Assembly: GCA_016711435.1 (NCBI GenBank)
Contig: JADJSY010000083.1
Coordinates: forward strand, 107,993 to 171,992
Direction: 5' to 3'
Length of the DNA: 64,000 nt
DNA from: Lewinellaceae bacterium
Lineage (GTDB): Bacteria > Bacteroidota > Bacteroidia > Chitinophagales > Saprospiraceae
The position numbers and the translations under genes were made by a program. Of the stretch, positions 14,059 to 63,875 are shown piece by piece. Numbering within the stretch: position 1 is the first letter of the stretch; each line of letters opens with the position of its first letter. The notes under the pieces were generated by a model that had not been told where the DNA came from, searched no databases, and was given only the letters and a program-made list of their open reading frames with translations.

Positions 14059-15560
14059 TTAACCTAATTCGGAAAGTGCCTGCAAACGCCGTACCGTCTC
14101 ATTGCGCCCCAAAGCCACAGCCATATCAAACACGGCAGGCCCTTTCATGGTGCCGGCCAGCGCTATGCGGAGGAGGGGCAGGATGTCGCCCGGTTTCACC
14201 GCTTTTTCATGTATAAAATGTTTGACGGCTTCTTCCAGCGCAGGGCCGTTAAAAGGTTCAAAAGTAGCCACCATTCCCGTTAATTCATTAAAAATTTCTG
14301 CGATGGGTGGGGTCCATTTCTTCTGAAACGTTTCTTTGTCGTATTCCCGTACCGCTTCGAATAAATAATACCCAGTCTCGACGAAATCCGGTAGAAAGGT
14401 CACCCGTTCCTTCATCAAGGCTGCCACTTGCTCCAGGTATTCATCCGTTACTTCATATCCCCTGGCTTTTGCCAGCGGTCGGATATAAGAGGCCAACAGT
14501 TCGTTATTGGCTGCCTGAATATATTTCTGGTTGAACCATTTTGCTTTTTCGTAATCGAACCGCGCGCCACTTTTGCTGATCTGATCTATCGAAAACGCCT
14601 GTATCAGGTCTTGCAAAGAAAATATTTCCTGCTCGCCACCCGGGTGCCAGCCCAGTAACGCGAGAAAGTTGATTGCCGCTTCAGGCAAAAAACCGGTATC
14701 GCGAAAGCCGCTAAAACTTTCCTCGGGTGTAGCGCCTTCCCATTCCAACGGGAATACAGGCATGCCGAACTTCGCGCCGTCGCGTTTGCTTAGTTTACCA
14801 TTGCCGACCGGTTTTAAAATAAGCGGCAAATGCGAAAAAACAGGCATCGTATCTGTCCAGCCGAAACCCTCATACAATAACACATGGTGCGCCGTACTGG
14901 GAAGCCATTCTTCCCCCGAATGACGTGCGTAATCTCCATCCGGTGGTCGTCCACAATATTGGCTAAGTGATACGTAGGCATCCCGTCCGCTTTCAACAGC
15001 ACTTTGTCATCTAATTCGCCGCTTTGAAAAACCACTTCGCCCCGAATCAGGTCGTGGACGTGAATGGAGCGTCCGGGTTCCACTTTCAAACGTATGACAA
15101 AAGGCATTCCCGCCTTCAGGCGGCTTTCCACTTCCGTCTCCGAAAGGGTCAGACTGTTGGATAAACCGCTGCGGGTCAGTTGATTGTAGGTAAAATTTTC
15201 TTCCGCCTGTTTGCGGAGCGCCAATTCTTCGGGGGTATCGAAAGCATAGTAGGCATGTCCGCGTTGAACCAGTTCGCGGGCATAATGATGATATATTTCC
15301 TTGCGGTCGCTTTGACGATACGGGCCTTTGTCGCCGCCAAAGCCTACGCCTTCGTCGGGCAGCAGGCCCACCCATTTCAAAGTCTCAATAATATATTCCT
15401 CCGCGCCCGGCACATAACGGGTTCGGTCGGTATCTTCAATTCGAAGGATAAAGGCGCCCCCTTGCTGTTTGGCAAAGAGATAATTGTACAATGCAGTACG
15501 TACACCGCCAATATGCAGTGCGCCAGTTGGAGAAGGAGCAAATCTTACGCGAACAGACAT
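14059..15560 (-). pseudogene. gltX: Glutamate--tRNA ligase, frame broken at C5/G5 run 14913-14917
   Basis: ORFs 14814..15590 ([18 protein letters not shown] motif, ...ITHVIRG) and 14059..14883 ([21 protein letters not shown]...KLSKR) are co-linear. Adding one G restores [26 protein letters not shown] at 15560. Confidence 0.85.
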
Positions 15561-15765
15561 ATATATTAAACTATAAAAAATCTGAACCACAAAGATATTG
15601 CTACATTACCTTGTAATCCGGATTCGTCGTCATGGGAGAAAAAAATGCGCGGCGACCGAAATGACAGCCGTCGCGCTTTGAATATACTTGCAGCAAAAGT
15701 AACAGTTTTCTTCTTTTGCGGAACCATCATGTCGTTAATTGGCAAAACCTTTACACCATCACCTT

Positions 15766-16389
15766 ATGTATATAGTCAAAACACCCGCTTTTGTTCAACG
15801 CCTTTTTCCTGATTATACCTGGCAAATACCTACAGCGGAGCGGGTGTTGTACCTGACTTTCGACGACGGCCCTATTCCGGTTGTAACGCCCTGGGTGTTG
15901 GATACCCTGCGTCCCTTCGATGCCAAAGCCACTTTTTTTTGTGTGGGTGAAAATGTGCAGCGGCATCCCGATATTTTCCAACAAATAATAAAAGAAGGAC
16001 ATACGGTTGGCAATCATACCCTCCAACACCTGAATGGCTGGAAAACGGATACGGATACATACCTCCAAAACGTACAACTATGCGCCAACCTGGTTCCCGG
16101 TAATTTATTTCGCCCGCCTTATGGCCGCCTGCGCACTACCCAGGCTACTGCCTTAAAAAAAAATTACCAGATCGTTCTGTGGGACGTCTTGAGCGGCGAT
16201 TTTGACCGGGGCATTTCACCACAAAAATGTTTCAACAATATCAGGCGGCACGCCCGGCCGGGTTCAATTGTCGTACTGCACGACAGCCTGAAAGCAGAAC
16301 GCCATCTTCGATACGCCCTGCCGGCGTTGCTTGATTTCTATGCCGGGAAAGGATGGCGGTTTGAGCGTGTTTTGGTGTTTAGTGTTTAG
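15766..16389 (+). CDS. Polysaccharide deacetylase family protein
   Basis: ORF 15739..16389; ATG at 15766. YLTFDDGP and NHT..H motifs of NodB-type deacetylases. The last 5 codons plus stop lie inside a repeat arm. Confidence 0.8.
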   Translation: MYIVKTPAFVQRLFPDYTWQIPTAERVLYLTFDDGPIPVVTPWVLDTLRPFDAKATFFCVGENVQRHPDIFQQIIKEGHTVGNHTLQHLNGWKTDTDTYLQNVQLCANLVPGNLFRPPYGRLRTTQATALKKNYQIVLWDVLSGDFDRGISPQKCFNNIRRHARPGSIVVLHDSLKAERHLRYALPALLDFYAGKGWRFERVLVFSV

Positions 16390-16610
16390 GGCGCGTTGCC
16401 TTTGGCAGTAGTGGGTAGTTTGGCCAAATGGTGACTATATTTGGGGCGGCGGGGTGTGGGGTTTCGGGGGGGGGGGGGTTTCTCGACTTTTAAGTTTAGT
16501 AAACGTATCCTCGGCTAACCATGCACAAAACCTAACGGCGCAAACTATAACTAAGGCCAAAAGTTACCACCCCTAAACACTAAACACCATACCCTAAACA
16601 CCATCAAACA
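16371..16610. repeat. Composite H-family element: inverted CAAACAC-word arms enclosing an H unit, a G-quadruplex/G13 tract and a truncated A-family copy
   Basis: Left arm ttggtgtttagtgtttaggg (16372-16391). Right arm ccctaaacactaaacaccat... (16571-16609). Interior: gcgcgttgcctttggcagtagtgggtagtttggcc, G-runs at 16443-16478, the A half-copy at 16492-16519, and gttaccac at 16563-16570. Confidence 0.85.
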
Positions 16611-17928
16611 GCTCTATTAGCGTCAAACTGCTCCAGATAATCGGCCACCCGGCGCAGGAAAGAGCCGCCCAGGCTACCATCCACAACGCGGTGATCGTAG
16701 GAAAGAGACAGGAACATCATCTGCCGGATCGCGATAACGTCGCCGTATTGCGTTTCGAGCACCGCCGGTTTTTTGCGGATCGCTCCGGCAGCCAAAATAG
16801 CCACCTGCGGTTGATTGATGATCGGCGTACCCATCACATTGCCGAACGTACCTACATTGGTGAGGGTAAAAGTACCACCCTGAATATCTTCCGGTTTGAG
16901 CTGGTTTTGCCGCGCCCGGGCGGCCAGGTCATTTACCTGTTTAGTCAAACCGGCCAGGTTCAGCAGATCGGCATTTTTAATCACCGGGACGATCAGGTTG
17001 CCCGAGGGCAATGCGGCAGCCATCCCAATGTTGATGTCTTTTTAACGATGATGCGGGTGCCGTCCACAGAAATATTAATCATCGGGAAATCGCGGATCGC
17101 CCGGGCGATGGCTTCTATAAATATAGGTGTAAACGTGATGTTTTCGCCGTACTGTTTTTTAAACGGTTCTTTCACCCGGTTGCGCCAGTTGACCATGTCG
17201 GTTACATCCACCTCTACAAATGAAGTGACGTGCGGACTGGTCTGTTTACTCATCACCATGTGGTCGGCAATGAGTTTGCGCATCCGGTCCATTTCTACAA
17301 TCTCGACATTGCCGCTTACGCTGACCGCCGGTGCCGTTTTCGCTATAGCAGGCGGCGTTGCAACTACGGCAGGCGCTACCGGTGCGGTAGCCGTTTGGCC
17401 GCTACCCTGGCGATGGGCGACATAAGCCAGCATATCTTTTTTTGTAACGCGCCCATCCTGGCCGGAGCCGGGAATGGCTTCGAGTTCTGCCTGGCTGATG
17501 CGTTCTTCTTTGGCAATGGTGCGTACCAGCGGCGAATAAAACCTGCCTGAAGCGCCGATAGCAAGTGGTTGCTGCACCATCGCTGATTCTGACGCTGGGA
17601 CGTATGGCACTGCCGCCGCTTCGCTGTGGCCATTCGACGGGGTCGGCTGGCTTATAGCGGGCGATGCGGCAGGCTGGGCGTTGGCAGCATCGGTTTCAAT
17701 GATTGCAATCACCTTGTTGATGGGCACGACATCATCTTCCTGAAAAAGAATTTCCACCAGTACGCCGGCTACCGGAGACGGCACTTCGCTGTCCACTTTG
17801 TCCGTGGCAATATCAAGCACTGCTTCATCGAGGTCGATGCGCTCACCGGTTTTTTTGCGCCATTTCAAGATGGTGGCTTCCATGATACTTTCGCCCATTT
17901 TGGGCATTACGAGTTCGACACGAGCCAT
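16604..17928 (-). pseudogene. 2-oxo acid dehydrogenase E2 component (dihydrolipoamide acyltransferase), frame broken at T5/A5 run 17039-17043
   Basis: ORFs 16993..17967 (lipoyl domain ...DIATDKVDSEVPSP, E3-binding region) and 16604..17023 (catalytic ...SLSYDHRVVDG) are co-linear. Adding one A restores IIVKKDINIGMAAALPSGNL. ATG at 17928. Confidence 0.8.
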
Positions 17929-18103
17929 ATTGCAAAAGGTGGGAAAGAAGATGCCATACCCTGACAATCCCTGATCCCGTTTTTATGGTTTGATAATAAT
18001 TTGGTTAAAGCAGCGCAAAGGTACTACTCTCGTCGGGAGTTGGCGAGGAGAGTTGGCAGTTTTAGAATAAAATTTTGTCAGGAAATCTCAACTTTGCCCC
18101 GTC

Positions 18104-24514: not shown

Positions 24515-25189
24515 GTGAAAACGCCTCCCGAATTTTTTCAACTGGTTTACGATGCCTTTCAAGAGCAGGGCAACCCGGAACGCGCGCAGCAACAGATGCG
24601 GTACATGCGGCATCAGTTTGAATATTTTGGACTGGGCATGCCGCAATGGATGGCGATTACCAAAAAGATACACGCCACAGAAGGTATTCCCGAAGGGGAG
24701 GATTTAAAAGCGCTGACTTTGCTTTGTTTTGAAGATGACCACCGGGAAATGCACTATTTCGCGCTCGAAACCGTGCAAAAAGCGCTCAAAAAACAAGCGC
24801 CCGAATTCATCTATTTTTTGGAAGCACTCATTTGCACCCGCTCCTGGTGGGATACGGTGGACTGGCTGGCAAAATTAACCGGGCTTCATTTCAAGTCGCA
24901 TCCGGCGCTGATTCGTCCGGTTACGGAGCGCTGGATGGACTCCGGCAATATGTGGTTGCAGCGCGTTTCCATGATCTTCCAACTGTCCTATAAAGAAAAA
25001 ACGGATACGGAACTGATGTTCGGTTACATCCGCAGACTGGCGCATTCCAAAGAATTTTTTATCCAGAAAGGGGCCGGCTGGGCATTGCGGCAGTATTCCA
25101 AAACCAACCCGCAGGCAGTAGTTCATTTTGTGGAGACTACGCAATTGGCTCCCTTGACGAAGCGGGAGGCACTGCGGTTAGTGAAGTAA
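24515..25189 (+). CDS. DNA alkylation repair protein (AlkD-like HEAT repeats)
   Basis: 224 aa helical repeat protein. WWDTVD and KGAGWALRQYSK motifs typical of the DNA_alkylation family. GTG start. Confidence 0.7.
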   Translation: MKTPPEFFQLVYDAFQEQGNPERAQQQMRYMRHQFEYFGLGMPQWMAITKKIHATEGIPEGEDLKALTLLCFEDDHREMHYFALETVQKALKKQAPEFIYFLEALICTRSWWDTVDWLAKLTGLHFKSHPALIRPVTERWMDSGNMWLQRVSMIFQLSYKEKTDTELMFGYIRRLAHSKEFFIQKGAGWALRQYSKTNPQAVVHFVETTQLAPLTKREALRLVK

Positions 25190-25405
25190 AAAGGCAAGGG
25201 GCAAATATGAGTCATCCCGGATTTTTGTGGGCTCTTGTATGCGGCAATTTTATTGATGACCTTATTGACAATTGATGTTTTTGATGCAGGGTGGCACCTG
25301 CACAAATCATCAATGTCAATAAGATCATCAATAAATACGAGTTTGACCTTTTTGTGGCCGTTTTAGGCAAAATCCGGGATGACTCATATTTGCCCCTTGC
25401 CTTTT
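25189..25405. repeat. F-family nested double-hairpin element (copy 1)
   Basis: Perfect 37-bp outer arms at 25189-25225 / 25369-25405 (aaaaggcaaggggcaaatatgagtcatcccggatttt). Imperfect inner hairpin ttattgatgaccttattgacaattgatg.../...catcaatgtcaataagatcatcaataa. Homologous to 63648-63857. Confidence 0.9.
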
Positions 25406-25410
25406 GCCTT

Positions 25411-27529: not shown

Positions 27530-27658
27530 TTGGTGTCCTTTGGCCAGGCTACCCACTGTTGCCAAAGGCGAAGCGCCCCAAACACGAAACACCAAACACT
27601 ACACACGGCCGACCCAAGGCAATGCGCCCCAAACACTAAACACCATACACTAAACACG
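27530..27658. repeat. H-family units (2 direct copies)
   Basis: ggccaggctacccactgttgccaaaggcgaagcgccccaaacacgaaacaccaaacac..., then ggccgacccaaggcaatgcgccccaaacactaaacaccatacactaaacacg. Confidence 0.85.
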
Positions 27659-28688: not shown

Positions 28689-28727
28689 GTTTAAATTTAT
28701 TTTGAGCAAATGTCTTTTGCCCTTTAC

Positions 28728-29813
28728 TTATTTCTGTGCTCTGCTGACTAACCAGATCGCTATAATGCTGAAGAATATGTTGGGAATCCACATACCGAGG
28801 ATGACCGGAACCGTACCGCTGATGGCAAAGGAAACGGCAAATTTGGACAACAGGATAAACGAAGCTCCAATGCCGATGCCCAGCGCCAGGTGCAGGCCCA
28901 TTCCGCCGCGTACTTTCCGACCGGCCACAGCCAACCCGATAATGGTCAGGATAATATTGGTAAAAGCATCGGCCGTTCGGCGTTGCATTTCGATTTCGTA
29001 ACTTCTGTTGGCGATACCGCGGCTTCGGTCGCGCTCGATGGCGGTCAGCAGTTCGCCGGTTGTCATCGCCTGGTTCTGGTTCTGGTAGTACACAAAATCC
29101 TGTGGCGCCAGGTTGATGGCTGTGTCGAGCGGGGTGTTGTAACGCTTATAACTTTCCCGAAGTCCGTCGAAAGTGCGCACGGAATAATTGTTGAGTTCCC
29201 AGCGCTGTATATCCGGTTTCCATTTCATGTTATCGGCCTCCAGAATACTCGCAATGCGGTTGTTGACCAGTTTTTCCAAACGCAGTCCGGTACCGGATTG
29301 GCTAAGTTTATTGTACCCCCGGATGTACACTTTCGTATCGGGCGACACCAGAAAATGCACATTGGAGCTGCGACCTTTTTCCTGATCCGTCCAGACGAAC
29401 GTATTTTCAAAATATAATTTCCAAACGTTGGTATAGGGAGTGACCACGTGGTTGAGCAAGAGGTGTACGGCAACGACAATGCTGCCGGCAATCATGTATG
29501 GGCGCAGCAAACGGCCAAAACTGACTCCCGCATTCAACACCGACAATATTTCGGAGTTAAACGCCAATCGGGACGTAAAAAAGACGACGCCAATCAGGGT
29601 ATATAGTGGCAGTAACAAACCCGCCATGTGGAGTGTGAAGCCTGTGTAATAAGCCAGAATGTCTTTCCAGGTACAGGGCTTTTCAATGATGGATTGCACC
29701 TTGTCGCTGAAATCGATGGCCACGGTTATCAGGGTGCAAATCAGGAGAGAGAAAAGCACCGTAGCCAGGTATTGCCGAATAAAATATTGATCCAGTACCT
29801 TGATTTTCAGCAT
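28728..29813 (-). CDS. LptF/LptG (YjgP/YjgQ) family permease
   Basis: 361 aa. 3+3 TM helices flanking a periplasmic beta-jellyroll-like segment. N-terminal LDQYFIRQYL motif. Confidence 0.8.
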   Translation of the reverse strand: MLKIKVLDQYFIRQYLATVLFSLLICTLITVAIDFSDKVQSIIEKPCTWKDILAYYTGFTLHMAGLLLPLYTLIGVVFFTSRLAFNSEILSVLNAGVSFGRLLRPYMIAGSIVVAVHLLLNHVVTPYTNVWKLYFENTFVWTDQEKGRSSNVHFLVSPDTKVYIRGYNKLSQSGTGLRLEKLVNNRIASILEADNMKWKPDIQRWELNNYSVRTFDGLRESYKRYNTPLDTAINLAPQDFVYYQNQNQAMTTGELLTAIERDRSRGIANRSYEIEMQRRTADAFTNIILTIIGLAVAGRKVRGGMGLHLALGIGIGASFILLSKFAVSFAISGTVPVILGMWIPNIFFSIIAIWLVSRAQK

Positions 29814-30540: not shown

Positions 30541-30625
30541 TAAGTAGTTATTCGTTATTAGTTATCGGCTATTTGTGTTGATAATCAATCATTTGCAAAT
30601 AATTTAGCCAAAACTAATTTTGCTT
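30541..30625. repeat. G-family intergenic cassette (full copy)
   Basis: gtagttattcgttattagttatcgg...gtgTTGATAATCAAtcaTTTGcaaataatttagccaaaacTAATTTTG. Begins 3 nt from the GT2 start codon. Confidence 0.85.
30592..30622 (+). promoter_or_regulatory. Candidate Bacteroidetes-type promoter (-33 TTTG, 19-nt spacer, -7 TAATTTTG) inside G cassette
   Basis: TTTG at 30592-30595 and TAATTTTG at 30615-30622. The complementary strand reads TAGTTTTG (30609-30616), facing the GT2 gene. Confidence 0.35.
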
Positions 30626-30676
30626 GATTACTTATAATTTCAGGTAAAGACAAGAATTGGAGGGTAAAGGTACACC

Positions 30677-30921
30677 GTTTTTGGTGTTTCGTTTTTGGTG
30701 TTTGGGGGCGCATTGCCTTTGGCAACAGTGGGCATGACGGCCATAGAGTAGTTCAGGCGAAGCGGCCCAAACACCAAACACCAAAAACGAACCACCAAAA
30801 ACGGCCAAAGGCGCAGCGGCCCAAACACGAAACACCAAACACTAAATACCATACACTAAATACCAAAATGGCCAAGGGCGGAGCGCCCCAAACACCAAAC
30901 ACCACACACGAAACACCAAAT
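30677..30921. repeat. H-family cluster: one inverted plus three direct units
   Basis: Inverted unit at 30677-30742 (gtttttggtgtttcg...gcattgcctttggcaacagtgggcatgacggcc). Direct units start near 30755, 30803 and 30870, each with (g)gcc..ggcg.agcg(g/c)cccaaacac.aaacaccaaac. Confidence 0.9.
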
Positions 30922-31224: not shown

Positions 31225-31250
31225 CGTAAATGGCAAAGCGCATTCAAAAA

Positions 31251-31277
31251 AACCTTCCTGTCCGGAGGGTTTTTTTA
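31251..31277 (+). terminator. Rho-independent terminator
   Basis: Stem aaccttcc / ggagggtt (one G-U pair), 5-nt loop, then T7 run. Lies 27 nt after the small ORF stop. Confidence 0.6.
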
Positions 31278-31353: not shown

Positions 31354-32394
31354 ATGAAATACATCTCCCTGCTTTCCCTCCTGTTACTTGTTGCCGCCTG
31401 TCAAAAAACAGATAAAAAAACGGATGTGGCTCCTGCCGCTGCTAAAACAGGTCTTGTTGTATCTGCTGTAGAAGGTTATACAGTGAAACCCAGCGTTTTA
31501 ACCGAAAACGTCACCACCAGCGGCAGCATTCTGGCTGCTGAAGAAACGGAACTCCACCCCGAATCCTCCGGCCGTGTCGTCCGCCTCAATTTACCGGAAG
31601 GGCGCAGCGTCCGAAAAGGAGAATTGCTGTTGAAAATCTTTGATGAAGATTTGAAATCGCAACTGCGCAAATTAGAAACCCAAATAAAACAGGCGGAAAT
31701 CACCGAACAAAGGCTGGCCGACCTGCTCAAAGTGAAAGGGGTGAGCCAGCAGGAGTACGATCTCGCCGTGCTGCAAACGCAGACCCTGCGCAGCGAGATG
31801 GAACTGACTAAAATAAATATTGATAAAACAGAGCTGCGGGCGCCTTACGACGGCATCATCGGACTTCGGAATATCAGTCCGGGCGCGTATGTGACGCCTG
31901 CTACGGCGGTGACAGTACTTCGCTCCGCAACGGCGCTCAAGCTGGATTTTTCCGTGCCCGAAAAATACAGCCGGCTGCTGCGAAGCGGACAAACGGTCAC
32001 TTTTAAGGTAGAAGGCAGTGCTGCCGACTACACGGCTGTGGTGCAGGCTACGGAACAAAGTATCCAGGCCGACTCCCGCAACCTGCGCGTAAGGGCATTG
32101 GTTCGGAATGGCAAAGGGCTGCTGCCCGGCTCTTTCGCAGAGGTAAACCTGGCATTGGGCGAAAAACAGAAGGCATTATTGATTCCAAATCAGGCAGTTA
32201 TACCACAGGCCCGCGATAAAAAAGTAATTGTAAGCAAAGGTGGCAAAGCACAGTTTGTAACCATAAAAACCGGGGTACGCCAGGCTGGAATGATCGAAAT
32301 TACAGAAGGCCTTCAAATTGGCGATACCATTTGTACCACCGGTATTCTCTTTTTACGCCCCGGTTCGGCTGTGACTTTTTCTAAAGTTGACTGA
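31354..32394 (+). CDS. Efflux transporter periplasmic adaptor subunit (RND/HlyD-type MFP), lipoprotein
   Basis: Lipobox LLVAAC|Q. Barrel-sandwich/hairpin pattern (GEL..KI.DEDL, coiled-coil, LRAPYDGIIG). 346 aa. Confidence 0.85.
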   Translation: MKYISLLSLLLLVAACQKTDKKTDVAPAAAKTGLVVSAVEGYTVKPSVLTENVTTSGSILAAEETELHPESSGRVVRLNLPEGRSVRKGELLLKIFDEDLKSQLRKLETQIKQAEITEQRLADLLKVKGVSQQEYDLAVLQTQTLRSEMELTKINIDKTELRAPYDGIIGLRNISPGAYVTPATAVTVLRSATALKLDFSVPEKYSRLLRSGQTVTFKVEGSAADYTAVVQATEQSIQADSRNLRVRALVRNGKGLLPGSFAEVNLALGEKQKALLIPNQAVIPQARDKKVIVSKGGKAQFVTIKTGVRQAGMIEITEGLQIGDTICTTGILFLRPGSAVTFSKVD

Positions 32395-33569
32395 TGCGCG
32401 TGGGAGCTTTTACAAGTTTTTACCGTCATCATATTGCCCGGTCTATAGGGCTTGTTTTTGCCGCAACCGGATTGCTGTATGGCACCTGGTCGGCACTGAT
32501 TCCATTTGTAAAAGAAAAGTTCGGACTGGATGAAGCGCAGCTGGGCTTACTTCTTTTATCGCTTCCTGCGGGTGTAACAATTATGAACCCTTTCGCCGTG
32601 CCTATTTTACACCGGTTCGGAGCGCCCAAAACAGCGCTTTTTTCGTTGGCCCTGGCATCAGTATTATTTGTGGCGCCTCTGACGGCCACTTCCGTCTGGT
32701 TGTTGGCCGTTTCGCTTTTTTTTGCCGGCGCGGCATTTTCTACCACCAATGTTGCTATGAATACCTGTTCCACCATGTTGGAAGGTCAGCAACAAATACG
32801 TATCATGTCTACCTGCCACGGTTTGTGGTCGGCAGGAGCCATGTCGGGTTCGGCGCTCGCAAGTGTTTTCACCGGCTTGGGTATATTGCCGTTGCTGTAC
32901 AGTTCCATTGTTGCAGGTTTATTAGTATCCGTTGCGCTGTTGTTGCGCAGGCCGCTGCAATTTTTGCGGGAAATCAGGCAGGACGGAGATGAAACTGCGC
33001 CCGTCGGCAAAAAATTTACTTTTCCCAATGCCCTGCTTTGGAGTTTGATTGTTATTAGTCTTTGTACCAACCTGGCAGAGGGTACTATGGCCGACTGGTC
33101 AGCAGTGTATATGAAAGAAGTTTTGGCATCTCCACCTTATATGATCGGCTGGGGATTTGCCTCCTACGCATTTTTTATGGCCGGCGGTCGTTTTGTAGGC
33201 GATGGACTGCTGGTGCGATATGGCGAGCGGGTCGTACTGATGGGCGGCGGGATCGTCGCAGCCATCGGTTTATTGTTGCCAGTCATTTTCCAAAATACAG
33301 GCGTGGCACTGCTGGGTTTTGCTATGGTGGGCGCCGGGGTTTCATTGGGCGCCCCTGTTCTTTACGGCGCTTCATCCCGTGTGCCGGGCATGGCGCCTGG
33401 CGCAGGATTGGCAACCATGAATACCTTTGCAATGGCCGGATTTCTGGGAGGCCCTGCACTGATCGGTTTTATTGCCAAATACTGGAGCCTTCCGGCCGCT
33501 TTTGCGCTGGTATCTTGCGCGGCCCTGTTCTGGGCCTGGCGGGCGCGACAAACGGTGGCGATCAAGTAG
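32394..33569 (+). CDS. MFS transporter (12 TM)
   Basis: 391 aa, hydrophobic throughout in a 6+6 pattern. ATG overlaps the adaptor stop (TGATG at 32392-32396). Confidence 0.8.
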   Translation: MRVGAFTSFYRHHIARSIGLVFAATGLLYGTWSALIPFVKEKFGLDEAQLGLLLLSLPAGVTIMNPFAVPILHRFGAPKTALFSLALASVLFVAPLTATSVWLLAVSLFFAGAAFSTTNVAMNTCSTMLEGQQQIRIMSTCHGLWSAGAMSGSALASVFTGLGILPLLYSSIVAGLLVSVALLLRRPLQFLREIRQDGDETAPVGKKFTFPNALLWSLIVISLCTNLAEGTMADWSAVYMKEVLASPPYMIGWGFASYAFFMAGGRFVGDGLLVRYGERVVLMGGGIVAAIGLLLPVIFQNTGVALLGFAMVGAGVSLGAPVLYGASSRVPGMAPGAGLATMNTFAMAGFLGGPALIGFIAKYWSLPAAFALVSCAALFWAWRARQTVAIK

Positions 33570-33735
33570 TTTGATGGTTTGAGAAGGTTTGATGGTTTGA
33601 AAAGTTTGATGGTTTGAGGTGGTAACTCATGGCTTACAGGTTACCACCTCAAACCATCAAACTTTTCAAACCATCAAACCTTCTCAAACCATCAAACCCC
33701 TTCAAACCATCAAACTTTCTCAAACCACTCAACCA
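33570..33735. repeat. B-family palindromic element (copy 1)
   Basis: Core ggtggtaac (33618-33626), loop tcatggcttacag, gttaccacc (33640-33648). Left arm has 3 tttgatggtttga words. Right arm has 5 caaaccatcaaac words at 17-18-nt period. Starts at the base after the MFS stop. Confidence 0.9.
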
Positions 33736-35793: not shown

Positions 35794-35885
35794 AAAAAGG
35801 TAAAGGGCAAAATTGCAAAGAGCAAAAAGCAATGTAAGTCATTGATTCACATTGCTTTTTGCCCTTTGTTATTTTGCCTTTTTTA
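35794..35885. repeat. J-family imperfect palindrome
   Basis: aaaaaggtaaagggcaaaattgcaaagagcaaaaagcaatgt - loop aagtcattgattc - acattgctttttgccctttgttattttgccttttt. Confidence 0.8.
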
Positions 35886-38786: not shown

Positions 38787-38828
38787 AGGCGCTCGTTGTT
38801 CGACAGAACGGCGAGCGCCTATTTTTTT
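38787..38828 (+). terminator. Rho-independent terminator, about 345 nt from any upstream CDS
   Basis: Stem aggcgctcg (38787-38795) / cgagcgcct (38812-38820), then a T7 run at 38822-38828. Confidence 0.7.
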
Positions 38829-40603: not shown

Positions 40604-41059
40604 GTGTTACTCGAACTTGATCTTCTGACTTTCCAACCTCGTCTCCGCTTATCGCAATCGGGCGGCAAACACTTGGTTTTTGACCCGATCCGGCGAAAGG
40701 AAATGGTGCTGACACCGGAAGAAATGCTCCGCCAGATGGTGCTTCTGTATTTACTGGAACACAAAAAATACCCCGCTAACCGGATCCGGGTCGAAGTGGG
40801 CATCGAGTTAAACGGGCTGAAAAAACGCTGCGATATCGTCATTTTCGACCCGGAACTGCGGCCCTGGCTGCTACTGGAATGTAAATCGCCCAAAGTATCG
40901 CTTAACCAGGCCACTTTCGAGCAGGCTGCGCGCTATAATCTACAACTGCAAGCCCCTTTTTTAGTCATCACCAACGGCCTCTCTACTTATTGCGCCGGGC
41001 TGGATTTTGAACAACAAAGTTTTCAGTATTTGGCGGAACTGCCCGAATACTTGACGTGA
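40604..41059 (+). CDS. Type I restriction enzyme HsdR N-terminal domain-only protein
   Basis: C-terminal part of ORF 39656..41059; the remainder is antisense shadow of the kinase. IFDPIRRKEMVLTPEE..RQ...YL...KYP...I.VE..I.LNGLKKRCDIVIF......LLLECKSP.V and LVITNG match the HSDR_N_2 pattern. GTG at 40604 is the first in-frame start. Confidence 0.6.
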   Translation: MLLELDLLTFQPRLRLSQSGGKHLVFDPIRRKEMVLTPEEMLRQMVLLYLLEHKKYPANRIRVEVGIELNGLKKRCDIVIFDPELRPWLLLECKSPKVSLNQATFEQAARYNLQLQAPFLVITNGLSTYCAGLDFEQQSFQYLAELPEYLT

Positions 41060-41163
41060 ATCGTGAGTCGTGAATCGTGAGTGGCATTCCCTTGAAAGAC
41101 AATTGAGTACTTTCTTCAAACGGAATGCCACTCACTATTCACGACTCACCACTCACGATTCAC
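41056..41163. repeat. C-family palindrome built from GTGAATCGTGAGT words
   Basis: Left arm gtgaatcgtgagtcgtgaatcgtgagtggcattcc (41056-41090). Right arm ggaatgccactcactattcacgactcaccactcacgattcac (41122-41163). Sits between convergent stops; the TGA of the HsdR_N gene lies inside the arm. Confidence 0.9.
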
Positions 41164-41174
41164 TACTCTCGACA

Positions 41175-43874: not shown

Positions 43875-43933
43875 GGGGGCAAAGGTAAGAACGAGACGCG
43901 GATTACGCGGATAAGGCAGATTTACGCGGATTT

Positions 43934-44025
43934 TTTACCACAATAGGCACATAGAAACTCCACATAGATCATATAAGATGCCTAATGTGATCTATGTGGA
44001 GTTTCTATGTGCCTATTGTGGTAAA
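43934..44025. repeat. D-family palindrome (38-bp arms)
   Basis: tttaccacaataggcacatagaaactccacatagatca / tgatctatgtggagtttctatgtgcctattgtggtaaa. Preceded by tandem gattacgcgga words (43895-43936). Half copy at 53522-53562. Confidence 0.9.
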
Positions 44026-45666: not shown

Positions 45667-45756
45667 GAAGGTTGGATGGTTTGAAGGTTGGATGGTTTGT
45701 GGTGGTAGCGCATGGCTCAGGTTACCACCACAAACCATCAAACCTTCAAACCATCC
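45667..45756. repeat. B-family palindromic element (copy 2)
   Basis: gaaggttggatggtttgaaggttggatggtttgtggtggtagc - gcatggctcag - gttaccaccacaaaccatcaaaccttcaaaccatcc. Confidence 0.9.
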
Positions 45757-46033
45757 CGTTCAGACAAATATAGCAATGGCAAAATTTGATTTTGATGTAT
45801 TGACAATAAAGGCGGGCAATGTTATGCAAAGATTTTTAAATCTGCTACAAAATACTGAAATTCAGCATGGACTTGTTTCGTTACACCGCTAAACCGGGTT
45901 TGAACCCAATTTTATAAGTATGCTGCCACGTTTTTTTGAACGAATTCATTTGTAAAGCATTGGTTATTATTGCTTTTTGCCCCTTGCTTTTTAGTATCCG
46001 GGCGCCAAACTTTCCCGTTCTTTGCGCCTTCAA

Positions 46034-47411: not shown

Positions 47412-47518
47412 AATAAAGGAGAGTGTTCAGAAAAGTGTGGCACACCTAAATTAGGGTACTGATAATCAATGTAGTAGCAGAGGTGTGCCACACTTTCTTG
47501 AACACTCTCCAATAAAGG
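47412..47518. repeat. E-family MITE-like element: 30-bp inverted arms flanked by direct AATAAA
   Basis: ggagagtgttcagaaaagtgtggcacacct (47418-47447) / aggtgtgccacactttcttgaacactctcc (47481-47510). aataaa lies immediately outside both arms. Confidence 0.85.
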
Positions 47519-50451: not shown

Positions 50452-50507
50452 GGTTAGTTATTAGTTATCCGTTATTGGTTATCAGTGTTGATAATCAAGC
50501 ATTTACA
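50452..50507. repeat. G-family cassette, truncated (words plus TTGATAATCAA, no -7 box)
   Basis: ggttagttattagttatccgttattggttatcagtgTTGATAATCAAgcatttacag. Confidence 0.8.
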
Positions 50508-51493: not shown

Positions 51494-52057
51494 TTACGCT
51501 GTTTTCCACTTGATATTACAGCCGCCCGAAGCTCGCTGCATGGAAGAAACCGGTTGATCGGCTAAAACGGCGTCCAACGCTGCCCGAAGATCTTCGCCGG
51601 TGCTCGGAATGGGGTTTCGTTTGGGTCGGCTGGGGTCGAGTTGTCCGCGGTAGACTAACTTCCGCTCACTGTCGAAAACGTAAAAATCCGGGGTGCAGGC
51701 GGCCTCGTATACACGGGCAACAGCCTGCGATTCGTCGTAAAGGTACGGAAATGTATAACCTACTGACCGGGCGTGTTCCGGCATTTTATCCGGGGCGTCT
51801 TCGGGGTAGTTGTCGGCGTCGTTGCTGTTGATACCGACGAAAGAAACACCACGTGTCTGATAGTCGGAAACGATCCGCACAATCTCCGGGTTGACATACA
51901 ACACATAAGGGCAGTGGTTGCAAAGAAACATCACCACTGTAGCGCGGCCTTTCGGCAGACCGCTGAGTCGCAGCGTCCGGCCTGTTGCAGGTTCGGGCAA
52001 TTCAAAATCCGGGGCCACTGTACCCAGCGGAAGCATATTTGATTCGGTGTAGGCCAT
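51494..52057 (-). CDS. Thioredoxin-fold redoxin (AhpC/TSA-like, CxxC)
   Basis: ATG at 52057. APDFELPE...VVMFLCNHCPYV motif. Confidence 0.8.
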   Translation of the reverse strand: MAYTESNMLPLGTVAPDFELPEPATGRTLRLSGLPKGRATVVMFLCNHCPYVLYVNPEIVRIVSDYQTRGVSFVGINSNDADNYPEDAPDKMPEHARSVGYTFPYLYDESQAVARVYEAACTPDFYVFDSERKLVYRGQLDPSRPKRNPIPSTGEDLRAALDAVLADQPVSSMQRASGGCNIKWKTA

Positions 52058-52067
52058 TTTTGTTGTT

Positions 52068-52184
52068 GAGGGTTGATAGGGTTGATGAAGGTTGATGTAC
52101 ATCCGCTCGAAAATGAAACGATTTTACTCATTTCGAGCGGATGTATATCAACCTTCATCAACCCTTATAAACCTTCATAAACCC
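52068..52184. repeat. B-like palindrome built from TCATCAACC words (variant core)
   Basis: gagggttgatagggttgatgaaggttgatgtacatccgctcgaaa ... tttcgagcggatgtatatcaaccttcatcaacccttataaaccttcataaaccc. Confidence 0.85.
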
Positions 52185-52195
52185 ATAAATATCAT

Positions 52196-53005
52196 TCATT
52201 TACACTGTTGATTGATCCCGCCCACATAGTGCTGTATGATGCCGATTTCGGCGGCCAGTTCGGCGCCTTTAAATCCTTTGATGTCGCTTGCTGTGATGGT
52301 TTTTTGATATTCATCCAGCAAAGGTTTGCTCAGGGGCGTGTATGACCAATGCCATTTTTCTTCGTGGTAGCCATTCGGGCGGCCTGCCGTATAGGGTTGG
52401 CAGAATCCGTATTCGTGGGCGTGTTCATTGAGCCAGGCATATACCTTCTGGTATTTTCCGCCGGTTTCGAAGGCGGCATTGTTCAAGTCGTTCAAATCAA
52501 TGTCGCTGCCCCAATGGTGGCGCGAGGAGCCGGGCATGGAAGAAAATTCAAGAATTTTGAGGGCGCGGTTTTTGGGCAGCGGGGCGTCTTTGGCAAAACG
52601 TTCCCATTTGGCTTCCCAGATGTTTTTTTGTTGCCCGAAACTGCGCGTGGAGGAAATGATTTTCAGTACAACTTTATCCTTTTGGGCCGCTGCCCACATT
52701 TTTTTAAATGCTTCGAAACTTTCTTTTCGCAGCATCATGCCTGCCCGGTCCGTATAGGGTTTGCCAACTTTTACGAAGTCGGGATGTGTGGCCGGATCAA
52801 ATTTGCCGAGCAGGTAATCGCTGTCGGCATCGGGCACAGTTACGGCTGCGGCGCTTGCTGCCGCGCCGGCAACAAGTGTAGCGGCCATAGTATCGCTTGC
52901 TACCGGCGCGGCGACTTTGAGCGGCACACCACTTGCTTCCGATGATGGGTCGCTTCCCTGGCAAGCCTGAAAAAAAAGGCTGAACGCCCAAAAAAATATA
53001 TACAT
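52196..53005 (-). CDS. M15-family D-alanyl-D-alanine carboxypeptidase (VanY-like), lipoprotein
   Basis: ATG at 53005. Lipobox LFFQAC|QG. SSTRSF..Q, SRHHWGSDIDL and EKWHWSY zinc-site motifs. Confidence 0.8.
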   Translation of the reverse strand: MYIFFWAFSLFFQACQGSDPSSEASGVPLKVAAPVASDTMAATLVAGAAASAAAVTVPDADSDYLLGKFDPATHPDFVKVGKPYTDRAGMMLRKESFEAFKKMWAAAQKDKVVLKIISSTRSFGQQKNIWEAKWERFAKDAPLPKNRALKILEFSSMPGSSRHHWGSDIDLNDLNNAAFETGGKYQKVYAWLNEHAHEYGFCQPYTAGRPNGYHEEKWHWSYTPLSKPLLDEYQKTITASDIKGFKGAELAAEIGIIQHYVGGINQQCK

Positions 53006-53376: not shown

Positions 53377-53459
53377 TAGTTATCAGTTATTAGTTATCAG
53401 TTATCCGTGTTGATAATCAAGTATTTGTAAAAAATCTAGGCAAAACTAATTTTACACAC
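53377..53459. repeat. G-family intergenic cassette (full copy)
   Basis: gtagttatcagttattagttatcagttatccgtgTTGATAATCAAgtaTTTGtaaaaaatctaggcaaaacTAATTTTA. Starts 2 nt from the trxA start codon. Confidence 0.85.
53424..53454 (+). promoter_or_regulatory. Candidate promoter in G cassette (-33 TTTG, 19 nt, TAATTTTA); minus strand reads TAGTTTTG toward trxA
   Basis: TTTG at 53424-53427. TAATTTTA at 53447-53454 (last base deviates from consensus). The reverse complement of 53441-53448 is TAGTTTTG. Confidence 0.3.
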
Positions 53460-53521
53460 CTGCATTTGTTTGTATCTATTTGCCGCATAGTTCACAGATG
53501 TTAAAAGGTAATCAAAACGGG

Positions 53522-53562
53522 CTATGTGATCTATGTTTTTTTCTATGTATCTATGTGGTAAA
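53522..53562. repeat. D-family half copy
   Basis: ctatgtgatctatgtttttttctatgtatctatgtggtaaa, compared with the D1 right arm tgtgatctatgtggagtttctatgtgcctattgtggtaaa. Confidence 0.7.
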
Positions 53563-54238: not shown

Positions 54239-55591
54239 ATGAAATATTTATTCCCTATCCTGCTCTGGAGCGTTTTTATCGGGAAAATATACGCTCAACC
54301 TGCCACATTCCGCCCGATCACACTAAGTGAAAGCCTGCACCTGGCGCTCGAAAACAGTGCGCAACTACAGAAAGCCCGCCTGGACCGGCAGGGCATAGAC
54401 AAACGTATGCAGGAAGGACGCAGCGCTGCGTACCCCCAGATCAGCATGGGATTTGGAATAGATTATCTGCCTGTGCTGCCGACACAACTCCTTCCAGGTC
54501 AACTGTTTGGCATGGCTGACAACACCTTCCTGCCGGTACAATTTGGTCAGCCCTGGCAACTGACCGGCTCCATCCAGTTGCAACAACAACTTTTTAATGA
54601 GTCGATGCGCAGGGCCGCCCCAGCAGCCAATGTTACCAGAAACATCTACGATCTGCTGATTACCCGTTCGGAGGAAGAGGTAGTTTTCACGACTGCCACG
54701 GTTTTTTATCAGACCCTGCAAACGGAGCAGTTGCTGCGCGCCATGAACGCCAATCTCGATAAATTAGACGCCCTGCAACGCATGGCAGAATTACAATTGG
54801 CCAACGGTTATGCCATTCCAACGGATGTAAAACGGATCAAAGTAGCCCGTACGAACCTCGAAACGCAGCGCCAGAATTTGTATACGGCCATCAGCGGCTT
54901 GCGTCAGACCCTGCAATTCCTCTGTGGCGTTCCTTTTGAAGAGGCATTCGATCCGATGGAAGAGATGTCGGCGCCGGCTGCCGACTCGGCGCGTTGGCAG
55001 GTGCTGGCGCTGGAGCCGGAAAACACCACCGAATTTCGCCTGTTGCTGCACCAGGTAGAACTCAACCGCATTCAACTCAGCAGCCTTCGGGCCGAAAACC
55101 TGCCCAATTTTAGTGCGCATGCGAACGCTTTCACCCAAACATTCCGCCCTGACGCCAATTTTTTCGACCTCGACAGGCGCTGGTATGGCGCAGTTGCTTT
55201 TGGCCTGAAAATGCATATCCCGATTTTCGACGGCTTTCGACGCTTACATAAATCGAGTTTCCTGGCCATTGAAGGCCAGAAATTAGCCGAAGACCGCAGG
55301 CAACTGAACAGCGCAAAAGGCCTGGAATTCAGGCAGGCCCGCGAACAACTTCAAAATGCCCTGCGCTCCCTGCGTACCCAAACGGATAATGTCGGTCTGG
55401 CCAGGGAAATCAGCGACAAACTGATGCTTCAGTATAGAGAAGGCGTTGTGCCACTCACCGACCTGCTCAATGCTCAAACAGCCCTTTCCGAAGCAGAAAC
55501 CAACTACTGGCAACAGGTTTTTACCTATAAACTCGCTGTTTTAAAACTGCTTAAAACAACCGGGAAACTGGAGGAATTGAAGGAAAAATGA
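54239..55591 (+). CDS. TolC-family outer membrane efflux protein
   Basis: Signal peptide ...GKIYA|QPA. Two repeats of the coiled-coil/beta pattern (LSL.E.L..AL.N...L, P.ISL). 450 aa. Confidence 0.85.
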   Translation: MKYLFPILLWSVFIGKIYAQPATFRPITLSESLHLALENSAQLQKARLDRQGIDKRMQEGRSAAYPQISMGFGIDYLPVLPTQLLPGQLFGMADNTFLPVQFGQPWQLTGSIQLQQQLFNESMRRAAPAANVTRNIYDLLITRSEEEVVFTTATVFYQTLQTEQLLRAMNANLDKLDALQRMAELQLANGYAIPTDVKRIKVARTNLETQRQNLYTAISGLRQTLQFLCGVPFEEAFDPMEEMSAPAADSARWQVLALEPENTTEFRLLLHQVELNRIQLSSLRAENLPNFSAHANAFTQTFRPDANFFDLDRRWYGAVAFGLKMHIPIFDGFRRLHKSSFLAIEGQKLAEDRRQLNSAKGLEFRQAREQLQNALRSLRTQTDNVGLAREISDKLMLQYREGVVPLTDLLNAQTALSEAETNYWQQVFTYKLAVLKLLKTTGKLEELKEK

Positions 55592-55740
55592 AGATGGTTT
55601 GATTGTTGGAAGGGTTTGATGGTTTGAAAGGTTTGAGGGTTTGAGGTCGTAACGTAAAGCCAAGAGTTACCACCTCAAACCCTCAAACCTTTCAAACCTT
55701 TCAAACCATCAAACCCTTCCAACCATCAAACTTTCCAACC
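55592..55740. repeat. B-family palindromic element (copy 3)
   Basis: ...gggtttgatggtttgaaaggtttgagggtttgaggtcgtaac - gtaaagccaagag - ttaccacctcaaaccctcaaacctttcaaacctttcaaaccatcaaaccc... Starts at the base after the TolC stop. Confidence 0.9.
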
Positions 55741-55878
55741 TTTTCCGGCCTCATAAATCCTTATCCACACAATCCCTGCCATATTATGCCGTTTCAGGCA
55801 ACCTATTCCAGCAGACGTGCGTCATTCCAGCCGTTTGTAAGAGTAATAGAATAGACAAATCCACCTGCTTTTTTGAAA

Positions 55879-63626: not shown

Positions 63627-63647
63627 CGGGGGATTTCAGATGGGTGT

Positions 63648-63857: not shown

Positions 63858-63875
63858 TGCGCCATGTAATTGCCC

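Follow-up and report, generated by a model that had tools for sequence, protein, structure and literature searches.

We favor, with some reserve, the interpretation that the B elements are a lineage-specific, non-coding and non-autonomous family of palindromic DNA word repeats of the Saprospiraceae/Lewinellaceae, and that their symmetry is maintained by events at the DNA level. The members of the family combine a shared core with different arms in modular fashion, and comparison of strains reveals inverted loops, replaced interiors, changed numbers of word units and one site that is empty. Because these strain comparisons show DNA-level processes that produce symmetry unaided, the symmetry of the elements can be explained without a functional folded RNA.

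A B element has as its first module a (quasi-)palindromic core of ~30 bp, GGTGGTAAC-loop-GTTACCACC; some copies have a perfect palindrome, GGTGGTAACTCTTGGCCAAGAGTTACCACC, as their core. The second module is a flanking pair of arms built of tandem 7-8-nt words. The words come as double units of 7+1+7 nt with a variable spacer of 3-5 nt, and on whichever strand the element is read the arm at the 5' end is G/T-rich and that at the 3' end C/A-rich. The window (the whole 64-kb stretch of DNA that was analysed) contains the following features of this kind:

16540-16571, plus strand: half B core (GGCCAAAA GTTACCACC), with an exact GTTACCACC at 16563-16571
33564-33702, unstranded: B copy 1 hairpin (63-nt arms, 97%; -104.4 kcal/mol; z -19.7; 95 bits)
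33618-33648, unstranded: copy 1 core, GGTGGTAAC - TCATGGCTTACAG - GTTACCACC
33703-33735, plus strand: extra unpaired C/A-rich words 3' of copy 1 (tandem array, period 18)
45667-45761, unstranded: B copy 2 hairpin (-63 kcal/mol; z -11.5; 78 bits)
45701-45729, unstranded: copy 2 core, GGTGGTAGC - GCATGGCTCAG - GTTACCACC
52062-52192, unstranded: variant element with GGTTGAT / GTTTATA words (-79 kcal/mol; z -15.8; 32 bits)
52098-52145, unstranded: palindromic core of the variant, unrelated to the B core (ACATCCGCTCGAAA...TTTCGAGCGGATGT; TACATCCGCTCGAAA ... TTTCGAGCGGATGTA)
55582-55746, unstranded: B copy 3 hairpin (-89 kcal/mol; z -14.3; 92 bits)
55645-55674, unstranded: copy 3 core, GGTCGTAAC - GTAAAGCCAAGA - GTTACCACC

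All four complete elements lie where the first-pass annotation, made from the letters of the window and its open reading frames, had placed them, and all four fold better than shuffled sequence (0/200 shuffles as stable; z -11 to -20). Their inverted-repeat arms are 63 nt at 97% in copy 1 (33564-33626 / 33640-33702), 34 nt at 97% in copy 2 (45674-45707 / 45723-45756), 49-55 nt at 85-86% in copy 3 (within 55582-55746) and 44 nt at 89% in the variant (52069-52112 / 52131-52174). A covariance model built from 27 copies matches exactly three B copies in the window, at 78-95 bits. The variant, which had been placed at 52068-52184 and assigned to the B family, is indeed a hairpin and scores 32 bits with this model, but its core is unrelated to that of the B copies. 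The description of the arms as tandem words was accurate: the word CAAACCATCAAAC, with up to two mismatches allowed, occurs 21 times versus 2.8 expected, nearly always within the three B copies; the arms of copy 1 are GTTTGATGGTTTGA words with 3-4-nt spacers between them; and TRF finds an array of period 18 with 4.7 copies at 33648-33732. Periods of 7-8 (double units 14-18) characterize the B arms in general, and likewise at least 10 other arrays in the window. One strand of the arms had been said to lack G and the other C, and over 29 copies C occupies 5/928 positions of the 5' arm and G 9/928 of the 3' arm.

The copies differ in their relation to the neighboring genes. The copy 1 hairpin starts within the last codons and TAG stop of an MFS transporter gene (32394-33569), and its unpaired words stop 8 nt before the TTG start (33744) of a pseudouridine synthase gene, a start position that was verified against the MQIIFEDY peptide of the orthologues. 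Copy 2 occupies the divergent spacer between an EamA gene on the plus strand and an SSF symporter gene on the minus strand, whose start is near 45620, in agreement with the earlier placement of 45667-45756 upstream of the symporter start. Copy 3, whose loop is oriented opposite to that of copy 1, lies directly 3' of the TGA stop (55589-55591) of a TolC-like OEP gene and upstream of sprA. The variant sits between co-directional genes of the minus strand: the stop codon of VanY (52196-52198) precedes it by 3-11 nt, and the start codon of redoxin (52055-52057) follows about 10-20 nt after it. Three of the four elements had been read as starting 0-1 nt after a stop codon; this needs correction for copy 1, which begins inside the last codons, and for the variant. 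The half B core belongs to a different word element (GTGTTTAG words, 16373-16610), in which it makes up the innermost part of the right arm. Nested hairpins are present elsewhere in the window.

The B core is multi-copy in the Saprospiraceae MAGs JALHMA01, JADLCC01 and JADKBV01, in Lewinellaceae JAYSZC01 and in one Bacteroidota MAG, with at least 16 loci in JALHMA01 among the matches listed. Across 27 copies 95.7% of the arm cells pair and compensatory changes are present at 10 of the 24 pairs, a level that 0/500 shuffles reach and that compares with 31-50% in slid controls. Arm complementarity thus exceeds chance well beyond the four loci from which it was first proposed, and a conserved core flanked by arms that differ yet stay self-complementary is an apt description of the family. 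Some of the covariation goes back to one division into two word subfamilies, inherited by many copies, and does not represent many independent events. The B core combines with two word types, GGTTTGA or GTTGAG, and GTTGAG arms are also found with the cores GGCCGCTCTGTG...CACAGAGCGGCC (contigs L026 and L072) and GGCATT...AATGCC (L011). Matches to the core pattern outside the Saprospiraceae/Lewinellaceae were rejected as family members and treated as chance, because they are single short hairpins that have no word arms; of 16 exact-core matches in viral contigs, none has word arms. Some of these viral matches are GGTGGTAACC iteron-like repeats in unrelated high-GC phages.

All of the data compared here are MAGs and metagenome contigs, in which palindromes are hard to assemble, and in these the loop is inverted at all three B loci. 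Among same-species contigs, L001 and L003 have TCAGGGCTTTAC as the copy 1 loop, and L004 has the exact reverse complement of this sequence. At copy 2 the window, L214, L215 and L217 share one orientation together with the flanking sequence AATAGTC, and L213, L216 and L218 have the exact reverse-complement orientation together with AATAGTT, so that orientation is perfectly linked to the flanking SNP in these seven assemblies; the inverted stretch takes in an asymmetric G.T position. The copy 2 core is thus present in the population in two heritable orientations. The orthologue of copy 3 in L064, from a species with 92% identical DNA, again has the exact reverse complement of the loop, and the arms at this locus carry a compensatory change (GATGG/CCATC in L064, GAGGG/CCCTC in the window).

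Interiors have been replaced at two loci, copy 3 and the variant, between strains whose flanks are <1% divergent. In L189 and L192 the interior of copy 3 (55595-55738) is replaced by GTTGAG words and half a B core, with 4/1353 and 13/1500 mismatches in the flanks; within the species the adjacent gene differs at 4-10/1353 nt and the right flank at 10-13/1500. Other strains have at the variant locus a core TTGCCACTC..GAGTGGCTA (L189, L191) or a true B element (L192). Within one species there are two alleles at the copy 3 locus and at least four at the variant locus, and the combinations of alleles at these two loci, which are 3.5 kb apart, are reshuffled among L189, L191 and L192. No direct repeats bound the swapped blocks at either locus. 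Unit number changes as well: at the variant locus the arms in L188 are symmetric and 39 nt long, and the window is missing units in the left arm only. Such gain or loss of units in one arm explains unpaired words better than the earlier suggestion that the extra words are iterated protein-binding sites. Finally, comparison of orthologous spacers, which had been recommended in the first-pass annotation, uncovered presence and absence of an element at the copy 2 locus, where a related species (L235/L236) is without the following block:

45668-45779, unstranded: block missing at the empty site (the hairpin with a tail of 23 nt)

The alignment with L235/L236 shows no target-site duplication beyond 0-2 nt at this site, and in a second species (L237) the site is occupied by a B element whose arms are different.

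How might such events keep two arms complementary? We suggest that the complementarity arises mainly from events in the DNA rather than from selection for a fold, as follows: recombination or replication template switching between the arms would flip the centre and copy one arm onto the other; slippage would add or remove word units in a single arm, leaving words without a partner; core and inner words together can give way to those of a different member of the family, with outer words and flanks staying in place; and a whole element can be present at or absent from a site with no target-site duplication. The molecular route may be gene conversion or template switching from one arm to the other, ectopic conversion, or insertion directed to the apex. 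Correction of quasipalindromes by template switching removes arm mismatches and inverts the centre when the switch crosses the template, and small hairpin-loop inversions occur in chloroplast DNA. The outcome predicted from these processes matches that seen in the B elements, but they act on isolated sites and not on a dispersed family, and the link drawn to them here is a proposed one. Any effect on transcripts would be a by-product; it could come about through a 40-60-bp RNA hairpin that serves as a substrate of RNase III or as a 3' barrier, or through stop codons in two or three frames of the first arm. It had been stated that structure rather than sequence is conserved in these elements. 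Pairing is indeed kept, but the selection for a fold that this wording implies is not supported, because loop inversions, interior replacement and unit-number changes, all of them DNA-level processes seen between strains, produce symmetry themselves.

Are the elements nevertheless maintained as RNA structures? We regard this as possible but doubtful. Pairing would then be selected and a 40-60-bp hairpin after the stop codon, formed by transcription from either strand, would act as a bidirectional terminator/insulator, as a barrier to 3'-exonucleases or as a site of processing by RNase III. Ribosomes would be stopped in every frame by the first arm, which is TGA-rich, and the unpaired C/A words would provide an unstructured leader for the next gene. 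The very stable folds (z -11 to -20, above) agree with this idea, as does the fact that most copies in co-directional or convergent spacers abut or overlap a stop codon, but about 6-8 of roughly 27 classifiable copies, or about a quarter, are in spacers between divergent genes. The bias toward 3' ends that had been expected is accordingly not exclusive, and one site is empty. A hairpin is kept just after the stop codon of the TolC-like gene in four lineages although its words and cores are unrelated, which could reflect selection for structure at that site and not a hot spot. Stop codons are present in two or three frames of the 5' arm in 28/29 copies and the 3' arm has none in 27/29; the other hairpin families of the window mostly share this polarity, a hint of some expression-linked constraint. 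Arm mismatches are G.U in the sense versus the antisense direction in 16 versus 6 cases, but a single element (L090) supplies 7 of the 16, so the bias comes largely from one element. The C/A words of copy 1 reach to 8 nt before the pseudouridine synthase start, where a related species has an AAACCAT x4 array and no hairpin, and for other filamentous bacteria it has been suggested that heptamer arrays just upstream of start codons serve as translational signals (PMC4679880). On the other hand, the U tract is absent although the organism has canonical terminators, the stems far exceed the length that any known terminator requires, one species has no element at all at the copy 2 locus, and near-identical strains differ in loop orientation, in the length of the arms, in word type and even in the core.

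It is unlikely, in our judgment, that the core and words are binding sites through which a dedicated protein mobilises or uses the elements. Candidates would be a REP-associated Y1 transposase acting on the single-stranded core hairpin, a recombinase that recognizes a lox/dif-like core, or a nucleoid protein that binds the iterated words. Across bacterial families both the loop consensus and the 9-bp arms of the core stay conserved while their surroundings change, the conserved 14-nt word with variable spacers resembles an iteron, and presence/absence and interior swapping suggest mobility. The core also contains TTAC and the words TTGAT, the target sites of IS608 and ISDra2. Yet the 64-kb window encodes no RAYT/Y1 transposase, other transposase or recombinase and no such gene was found in the annotated flanks, no target-site duplication is seen, and GTAG or CGTC tags of the REP/REPIN type are absent from all 29 copies, in which the core begins with GGTGGTAAC and is preceded by TTGA or TGAG. 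In addition, a single binding protein is hard to reconcile with the words, because at the same locus these are completely different between hairpin families and species. An IS110-family transposase of strain L214 was also considered as an enzyme that targets B hairpins and was rejected; it is inserted near window position 47605, outside the B elements.

That the elements are phase-variation switches, in which a flip of the centre or a change in word number turns the adjacent gene on or off, is very improbable. Two orientations do coexist in one species at copy 2, 17-47 nt upstream of the symporter start, and word number varies between strains, but the detectable inverted stretch of 11-15 nt is too short for a promoter, the copies are mostly downstream of genes, and the linkage of orientation to the flanking SNP makes it a stable lineage marker and not a rapid switch; for the same reasons of length and linkage, and with no invertase gene nearby, assignment to the invertons was rejected. 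We consider it least credible of all, and largely refuted, that the inversions and allele differences are palindromes mis-assembled from metagenomes: perfect copy 1 arms of at least 58 bp can exceed the assembler k-mer and leave loop orientation ambiguous, contigs L002, L005 and L006 break inside copy 1, and the window has the frameshifts typical of long-read assemblies, but in seven independent assemblies copy 2 orientation shows perfect linkage to a SNP that lies beyond the palindrome, the replaced alleles recur in independent samples (L189 and L192 for copy 3, L189 and L191 for the variant locus), the copy 3 arms in L064 are perfect for 24 bp only, and the family is present in many unrelated assemblies.

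A family whose symmetry may well be generated in the DNA should be compared with the known classes of palindromic and repeated sequence. A search of the whole window against Rfam 15 at gathering thresholds gave 0 matches, and an E-value search around copy 1 returned eukaryotic miRNA-precursor models only, all below threshold; these matches are generic long-hairpin similarity. Rho-independent terminators were rejected because no T tract follows the stems and because of stem length (40-60 bp, followed by C/A words and no T run), as the first-pass annotation had also judged; a terminator scan of the window found none at the B elements and a canonical hairpin plus T tract at 31246-31276 and at 38787-38820. 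The elements are not MITEs, in that filled and empty sites differ with no duplication beyond 0-2 nt and the conserved part is the centre and not the termini. Integron attC sites resemble the B elements as imperfect palindromes at gene 3' ends with structure rather than sequence conserved. Their conserved RYYYAAC / GTTRRRY motifs, however, are outermost and their centre is variable, the reverse of the arrangement in B; GGTGGTAAC and GTTACCACC are central and fall outside the attC consensus, and the window has no integrase gene or cassette array.

The REP, BIME and REPIN sequences of proteobacteria are, like the B elements, abundant extragenic palindromes that are often located at gene ends, and like them a major source of intergenic polymorphism between strains (PMC2884548). 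REP elements are imperfect palindromes 20-40 nt long with a GTAG or CGTC tag at the 5' end (PMC3733652). REPINs are hairpin-forming, non-autonomous mobile units, and RAYT genes adjoin REPIN clusters (PMC3116915). The arms of a REPIN are conserved and its loop varies, whereas in B the centre is conserved and the arms vary, and B elements have neither the tag nor a RAYT gene in the window.

A similar design is that of the STRRs (short tandemly repeated repetitive heptamer arrays) of heterocyst-forming cyanobacteria. Both are intergenic word arrays with a 7-nt period that often form hairpins between genes, and both occur as numerous word families per genome; the B elements have the properties of an STRR-type heptamer array (tandem repeats of ~7-nt period, many families, hairpins) in a taxon that is not cyanobacterial. 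Unlike STRRs, they have a Bacteroidota host, a conserved multi-copy palindromic core at the apex and the 7+1+7-nt double-word unit with its 3-5-nt variable spacer. Vioque is said to have found in 1997 that STRRs lengthen helix P12 of RNase P RNA. We know of no reports of interior swapping or loop inversion for STRRs; in B both are documented between strains. Roles proposed for STRRs are in transcript stability, translational coupling or termination (PMC2670836).

The SDRs (small dispersed repeats) of Nostoc are, like B, built on very small palindromic modules that have no coding capacity. Elhai and colleagues reportedly described in 2008 SDR modules of 21-27 nt in Nostoc that are apparently mobile and insert precisely into other palindromes. 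SDRs are also found within heptamer arrays. SDR5 inserts within the HIP1 palindrome (PMC4390886). The sequences of SDR and B are unrelated, and the modularity of the B elements suggests that their core, too, may insert as a separate unit.

A more speculative reading, which we think rather unlikely, is that the B elements, and by analogy STRRs and SDRs, are gene-less mobile DNA that spreads by way of the apices of existing hairpins and palindromes. A palindromic module (the core with or without inner words) would be copied into the centre of another hairpin either by hairpin cleavage followed by repair from another copy or by some enzyme. If this were true, intergenic hairpins would be rewritten continuously while their position and symmetry persist, which would account for the modular combinations of core and arm, for outer words that are kept where interiors are swapped, for the nested hairpins that the window has elsewhere, and for the persistence at one site, in different species, of a hairpin whose sequences are unrelated.

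Heptamer-type word arrays and tiny palindromic repeats have been known for more than 30 years in filamentous cyanobacteria. The B family brings the same design to a second phylum, with strain-level snapshots of the processes (heritable flips of the centre, gain or loss of units in one arm, replacement of interiors, and filled and empty sites), and the question of the origin, spread and function of such repeats is testable with long reads in the Saprospiraceae populations of activated sludge. The elements are also of practical concern: they break short-read assemblies, supply stop codons at gene ends, are highly variable strain markers, and can pass for structured RNAs if judged by covariation alone.

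Direct repeats of the heptamer TAACTGA are present in Beggiatoaceae, cyanobacteria and some Bacteroidetes and mostly end a few nt before a start codon (PMC4679880). These arrays and the B elements are alike as intergenic heptamer arrays of filamentous bacteria, and both sets of words contain stop codons, but the TAACTGA arrays are direct and have no partner arm or core, whereas those of B are inverted around a core. Arrays of the TAACTGA type are present in the window too; they take the reverse-complement form TCAGTTA/TTAGTTA and lie just upstream of start codons on the minus strand.

The four hairpin elements that the first-pass annotation had proposed, three B elements and a variant with an unrelated core, are all present, and their settings are as follows:

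33564-33735: copy 1, between co-directional genes (MFS transporter, then pseudouridine synthase)
45667-45761: copy 2, between divergent genes (SSF symporter and EamA transporter)
55582-55746: copy 3, between co-directional genes (TolC-like OEP, then SprA)
52062-52192: variant, minus strand, between co-directional genes (VanY, then redoxin)

Their arms are 34-63 nt long and 85-97% complementary, with fold energies of -63 to -104 kcal/mol (z -11.5 to -19.7), and no shuffled sequence folded as well. The word arrays have periods of 8 and 17-18, the word CAAACCATCAAAC (up to 2 mismatches) occurs 21 times where 2.8 are expected, and across 29 copies C occupies 5 of 928 positions of the 5' arm and G 9 of 928 of the 3' arm. 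A covariance model built on 27 copies and then run on the window matches exactly three members (78-95 bits); the variant scores 32 bits. The B elements are a real, well-defined repeat family, and their structural description stands as first given; the functional reading implied with it, of elements selected for structure, biased to 3' ends and built of protein-binding words, is supported only in part.

One genome per species was scanned for the core GGTGGTARC-N9-15-GTTACCACC, and the matches listed include at least 16 cores in JALHMA01 and at least 4 in JADLCC01 (Saprospiraceae MAGs), at least 5 in JAYSZC01 (a Lewinellaceae MAG) and at least one in a Bacteroidota MAG. Word arms are present at these listed matches and absent at the scattered listed matches in other phyla. 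Copies were sampled by exact core match, and the sole unbiased density figure is three copies per 64 kb; the comparison sequences are MAGs or metagenome contigs throughout. The arms are built of two word types, GGTTTGATGGTTTGA and GTTGAGATTGTTGAG, and although every copy has its own variable spacers and word order, its two arms agree in both. In the 27-copy alignment 95.7% of cells pair, whereas shuffles reach 84% and slid partners 31-50%; 10 of 24 pairs show changes on both sides, and much of this covariation comes down to one split, that between the word types. The loop, roughly TCTTGGC/CAAGA, is quasi-palindromic, and two copies are perfect 30-bp palindromes. Cores and arms are modular: the B core is combined with either word type, degenerate and half cores occur, and GTTGAG-type arms surround other cores, namely GGCCGCTCTGTG...CACAGAGCGGCC in comparison contigs L026 and L072 and GGCATT...AATGCC in L011. 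In five viral contigs (L198, L201, L203, L197 and L211, from unrelated high-GC phages) a short palindrome, GGTGGTAAC...GTTACCACC, is surrounded by tandem repeats resembling GGTGGTAACC; these look like operator or iteron sites with no link to the B family.

The window derives from a Saprospiraceae genome (NCBI species label Lewinellaceae bacterium). Contig CAWKXD010000004.1 of GCA_963853525.1 (L001, L187, L213) is 98-99% identical to it, and JALHMA01 (L064) about 92% identical across 8 kb. The genes for glutamyl-tRNA synthetase (14059-15590), 2-oxoacid dehydrogenase E2 (16604-17967) and SprA (55873-63626) are each broken into overlapping ORFs in the window; SprA is one intact gene of 2562 aa in L187, which suggests that the split ORFs are frameshift errors typical of long-read assembly. 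About 350 nt of L001 (4554-4904), spanning the 3' end of a dihydroorotate dehydrogenase gene and half an A-type element (below), are missing at window position 27392, through either deletion or assembly error.

Comparison of these relatives shows that the centres of the elements invert. In copy 1, L001 and L003 have the loop TCAGGGCTTTAC and L004 has exactly its reverse complement; taken alone, this could be assembler ambiguity, since the arms match perfectly over at least 58 bp and three contigs are broken at this element. The copy 3 loops of the window and L064 are likewise reverse complements, and their arms differ by a compensatory change (GAGGG/CCCTC versus GATGG/CCATC). Copy 2 occurs in seven assemblies as two exact reverse-complement forms, an asymmetric G.T position included, and each form goes with a single allele of a SNP lying beyond the palindrome; here, then, the inversion is genuine and inherited.

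Whole interiors are also replaced. Among contigs encoding an identical TolC-like protein, the copy 3 locus holds either a B element of GGTTTGA words or an element of GTTGAG words plus a half B core (L189, L192); mismatches number just 4-10 of 1353 nt in the adjacent gene and 10-13 of 1500 in the right flank. At least four alleles occur at the variant locus, with outer words partly kept: the core seen in the window, combined with varying numbers of left-arm units (L187, L188); another core, flanked by GTTTATA words (L189, L191); and, in L192, a true B element of GTTGAG words. L189, L191 and L192 each combine the alleles of the two loci differently. At the variant locus the arms of L188 are symmetric, at 39 nt, and the window is short of units in its left arm alone, so that right-hand words stay unpaired; such a change in unit number most simply accounts for the extra unpaired words, in place of the protein-binding sites suggested for them at first.

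At the copy 2 site in related species (EamA 90% identical), one species (L237) has a B element with different, longer arms, and another (L235/L236) has an empty site, lacking window positions 45668-45779, with no duplication beyond 0-2 nt. After the TolC-like stop codon two further species have hairpins of GTCCTGA words (L227/L228) or AGTGCGAAGT words (L224/L225) with unrelated cores, and a third (L223) has no word hairpin there; the region upstream of sprA is conserved throughout these comparisons. A 96%-identical pseudouridine synthase orthologue has another upstream gene and another hairpin, sharing just the last words with the window, and upstream of an 81% orthologue only an AAACCAT x4 array is retained.

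Is the symmetry of the arms a property of the DNA or of a transcript? Most simply it is a product of the DNA. By the mechanisms of replacement and spread that we infer, arm exchange or template switching would invert the centre and copy one arm onto the other, slippage would change unit numbers, and interiors would be swapped among family members. Such a scheme would match what is established for quasipalindromes and for small hairpin inversions in chloroplast DNA. Alternatively, selection on an RNA hairpin may keep the B arms complementary. In its favour, a hairpin persists after the TolC-like gene, the first arm is stop-rich and the second stop-free, and there is a weak sense-strand excess of G.U pairs (16 versus 6). 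Against it, copies lie in divergent spacers, an empty site exists, and loop orientation, length, word type and core all vary freely. Stems this long, if transcribed, would be expected RNase III substrates.

The position of the elements relative to genes bears on the 3'-end bias also proposed for them. In a crude census of about 27 copies using rough ORF calls, about 12 spacers are co-directional, about 4 convergent and 6-8 divergent, and in the divergent ones the elements are just as close to start codons; B elements thus tend to fill spacers rather than mark 3' ends specifically. An element abuts or overlaps the stop codon wherever one is near. In 28 of 29 copies the first arm has stop codons in 2-3 frames (the second has none in 27 of 29), so any ORF running into an element ends within a few codons, and this alone explains part of the reported start 0-1 nt after a stop. 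Canonical T-tract terminators exist separately in the window, so the B elements are not the organism's standard terminator, in agreement with the earlier view that they are not ordinary ones.

Among known systems the closest parallels are the STRR heptamer arrays of cyanobacteria, intergenic hairpins of unexplained function (PMC2670836); the small dispersed repeats of Nostoc, which insert into palindromes (PMC4390886), are also close. The B family lacks a defining feature of REP/REPIN elements, of MITEs, of attC sites and of invertons alike. No Rfam match and no description in the searchable literature was found for it; it belongs with word arrays and palindromic repeats, and its evidence of inversion and interior swapping is unusually clear. 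The B family is one case of a genome-wide habit, since the window holds about 18 other word arrays or word hairpins, some nested.

No gene for a transposase, recombinase or Y1 protein was found within the 64-kb window. In one strain (L214, 4440-6100; window ~47605) the spacer that follows a DUF2147 gene contains, directly behind TTTTGACACAAC, an inserted transposase gene of the IS110 family (DEDD_Tnp_IS110 + Transposase_20); past this point the contig differs from the window. A ~100-nt element of GCAAAG-type words bounded by the direct repeat TTTGCC[CG]TTTACTTA is present in L001 (6248-6323) and L002 of the same species and absent at window 28716-28730. Another small variable intergenic segment (53453-53544), ~90 nt long and upstream of an array of CTATGTG words, occurs in the window and in L187 and is missing from L189 and L192.

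A long inverted repeat is present in about half of the window's spacers that exceed 100 nt. Other intergenic hairpins or arrays lie at 41055-41172, 35802-35882, 43934-44025 (reversed polarity, C/A-rich arm first), 47418-47510, 1147-1217, 27580-27657 and 43896-43932, with the words CGTGAAT/CGTGAGT, GCAAAG, CACATAG, AAACACG and ACGCGGATT. A nested element in two copies (25184-25410, 63629-63876) has outer arms of AAAGGCAAGGGGCAAATATGAGTCATCCCGGATTTT and its complement, 143-160 nt apart, around an inner hairpin whose words are TTATTGATGA and whose loop is of GGTGGCA type. The A-type elements (16373-16610, 30675-30920) consist of GGTGTTT / GTGTTTAG words around the core GGGCGC.TTGCCTTTGGCA.CAGTGGG; the one at 30675 has a single left arm and three consecutive right-arm blocks (period 67), and within the one at 16373 lie a run of 13 G and half a copy of the 1147-1217 hairpin. 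A feature separate from the B elements is formed by AGTTATC / TTAGTTA arrays at 53378-53405, 30545-30575 and 50454-50486. These heptamers, which read TAACTGA/TAACTAA on the opposite strand, lie immediately upstream of the start codons of minus-strand genes (ending at 53375, 30537 and 50446), the same arrangement as that of the TAACTGA heptamer arrays upstream of start codons in Beggiatoaceae, in cyanobacteria and in a few Bacteroidetes (PMC4679880). The stretches adjoining two of the arrays (30575-30615 and 53405-53450) are alike.
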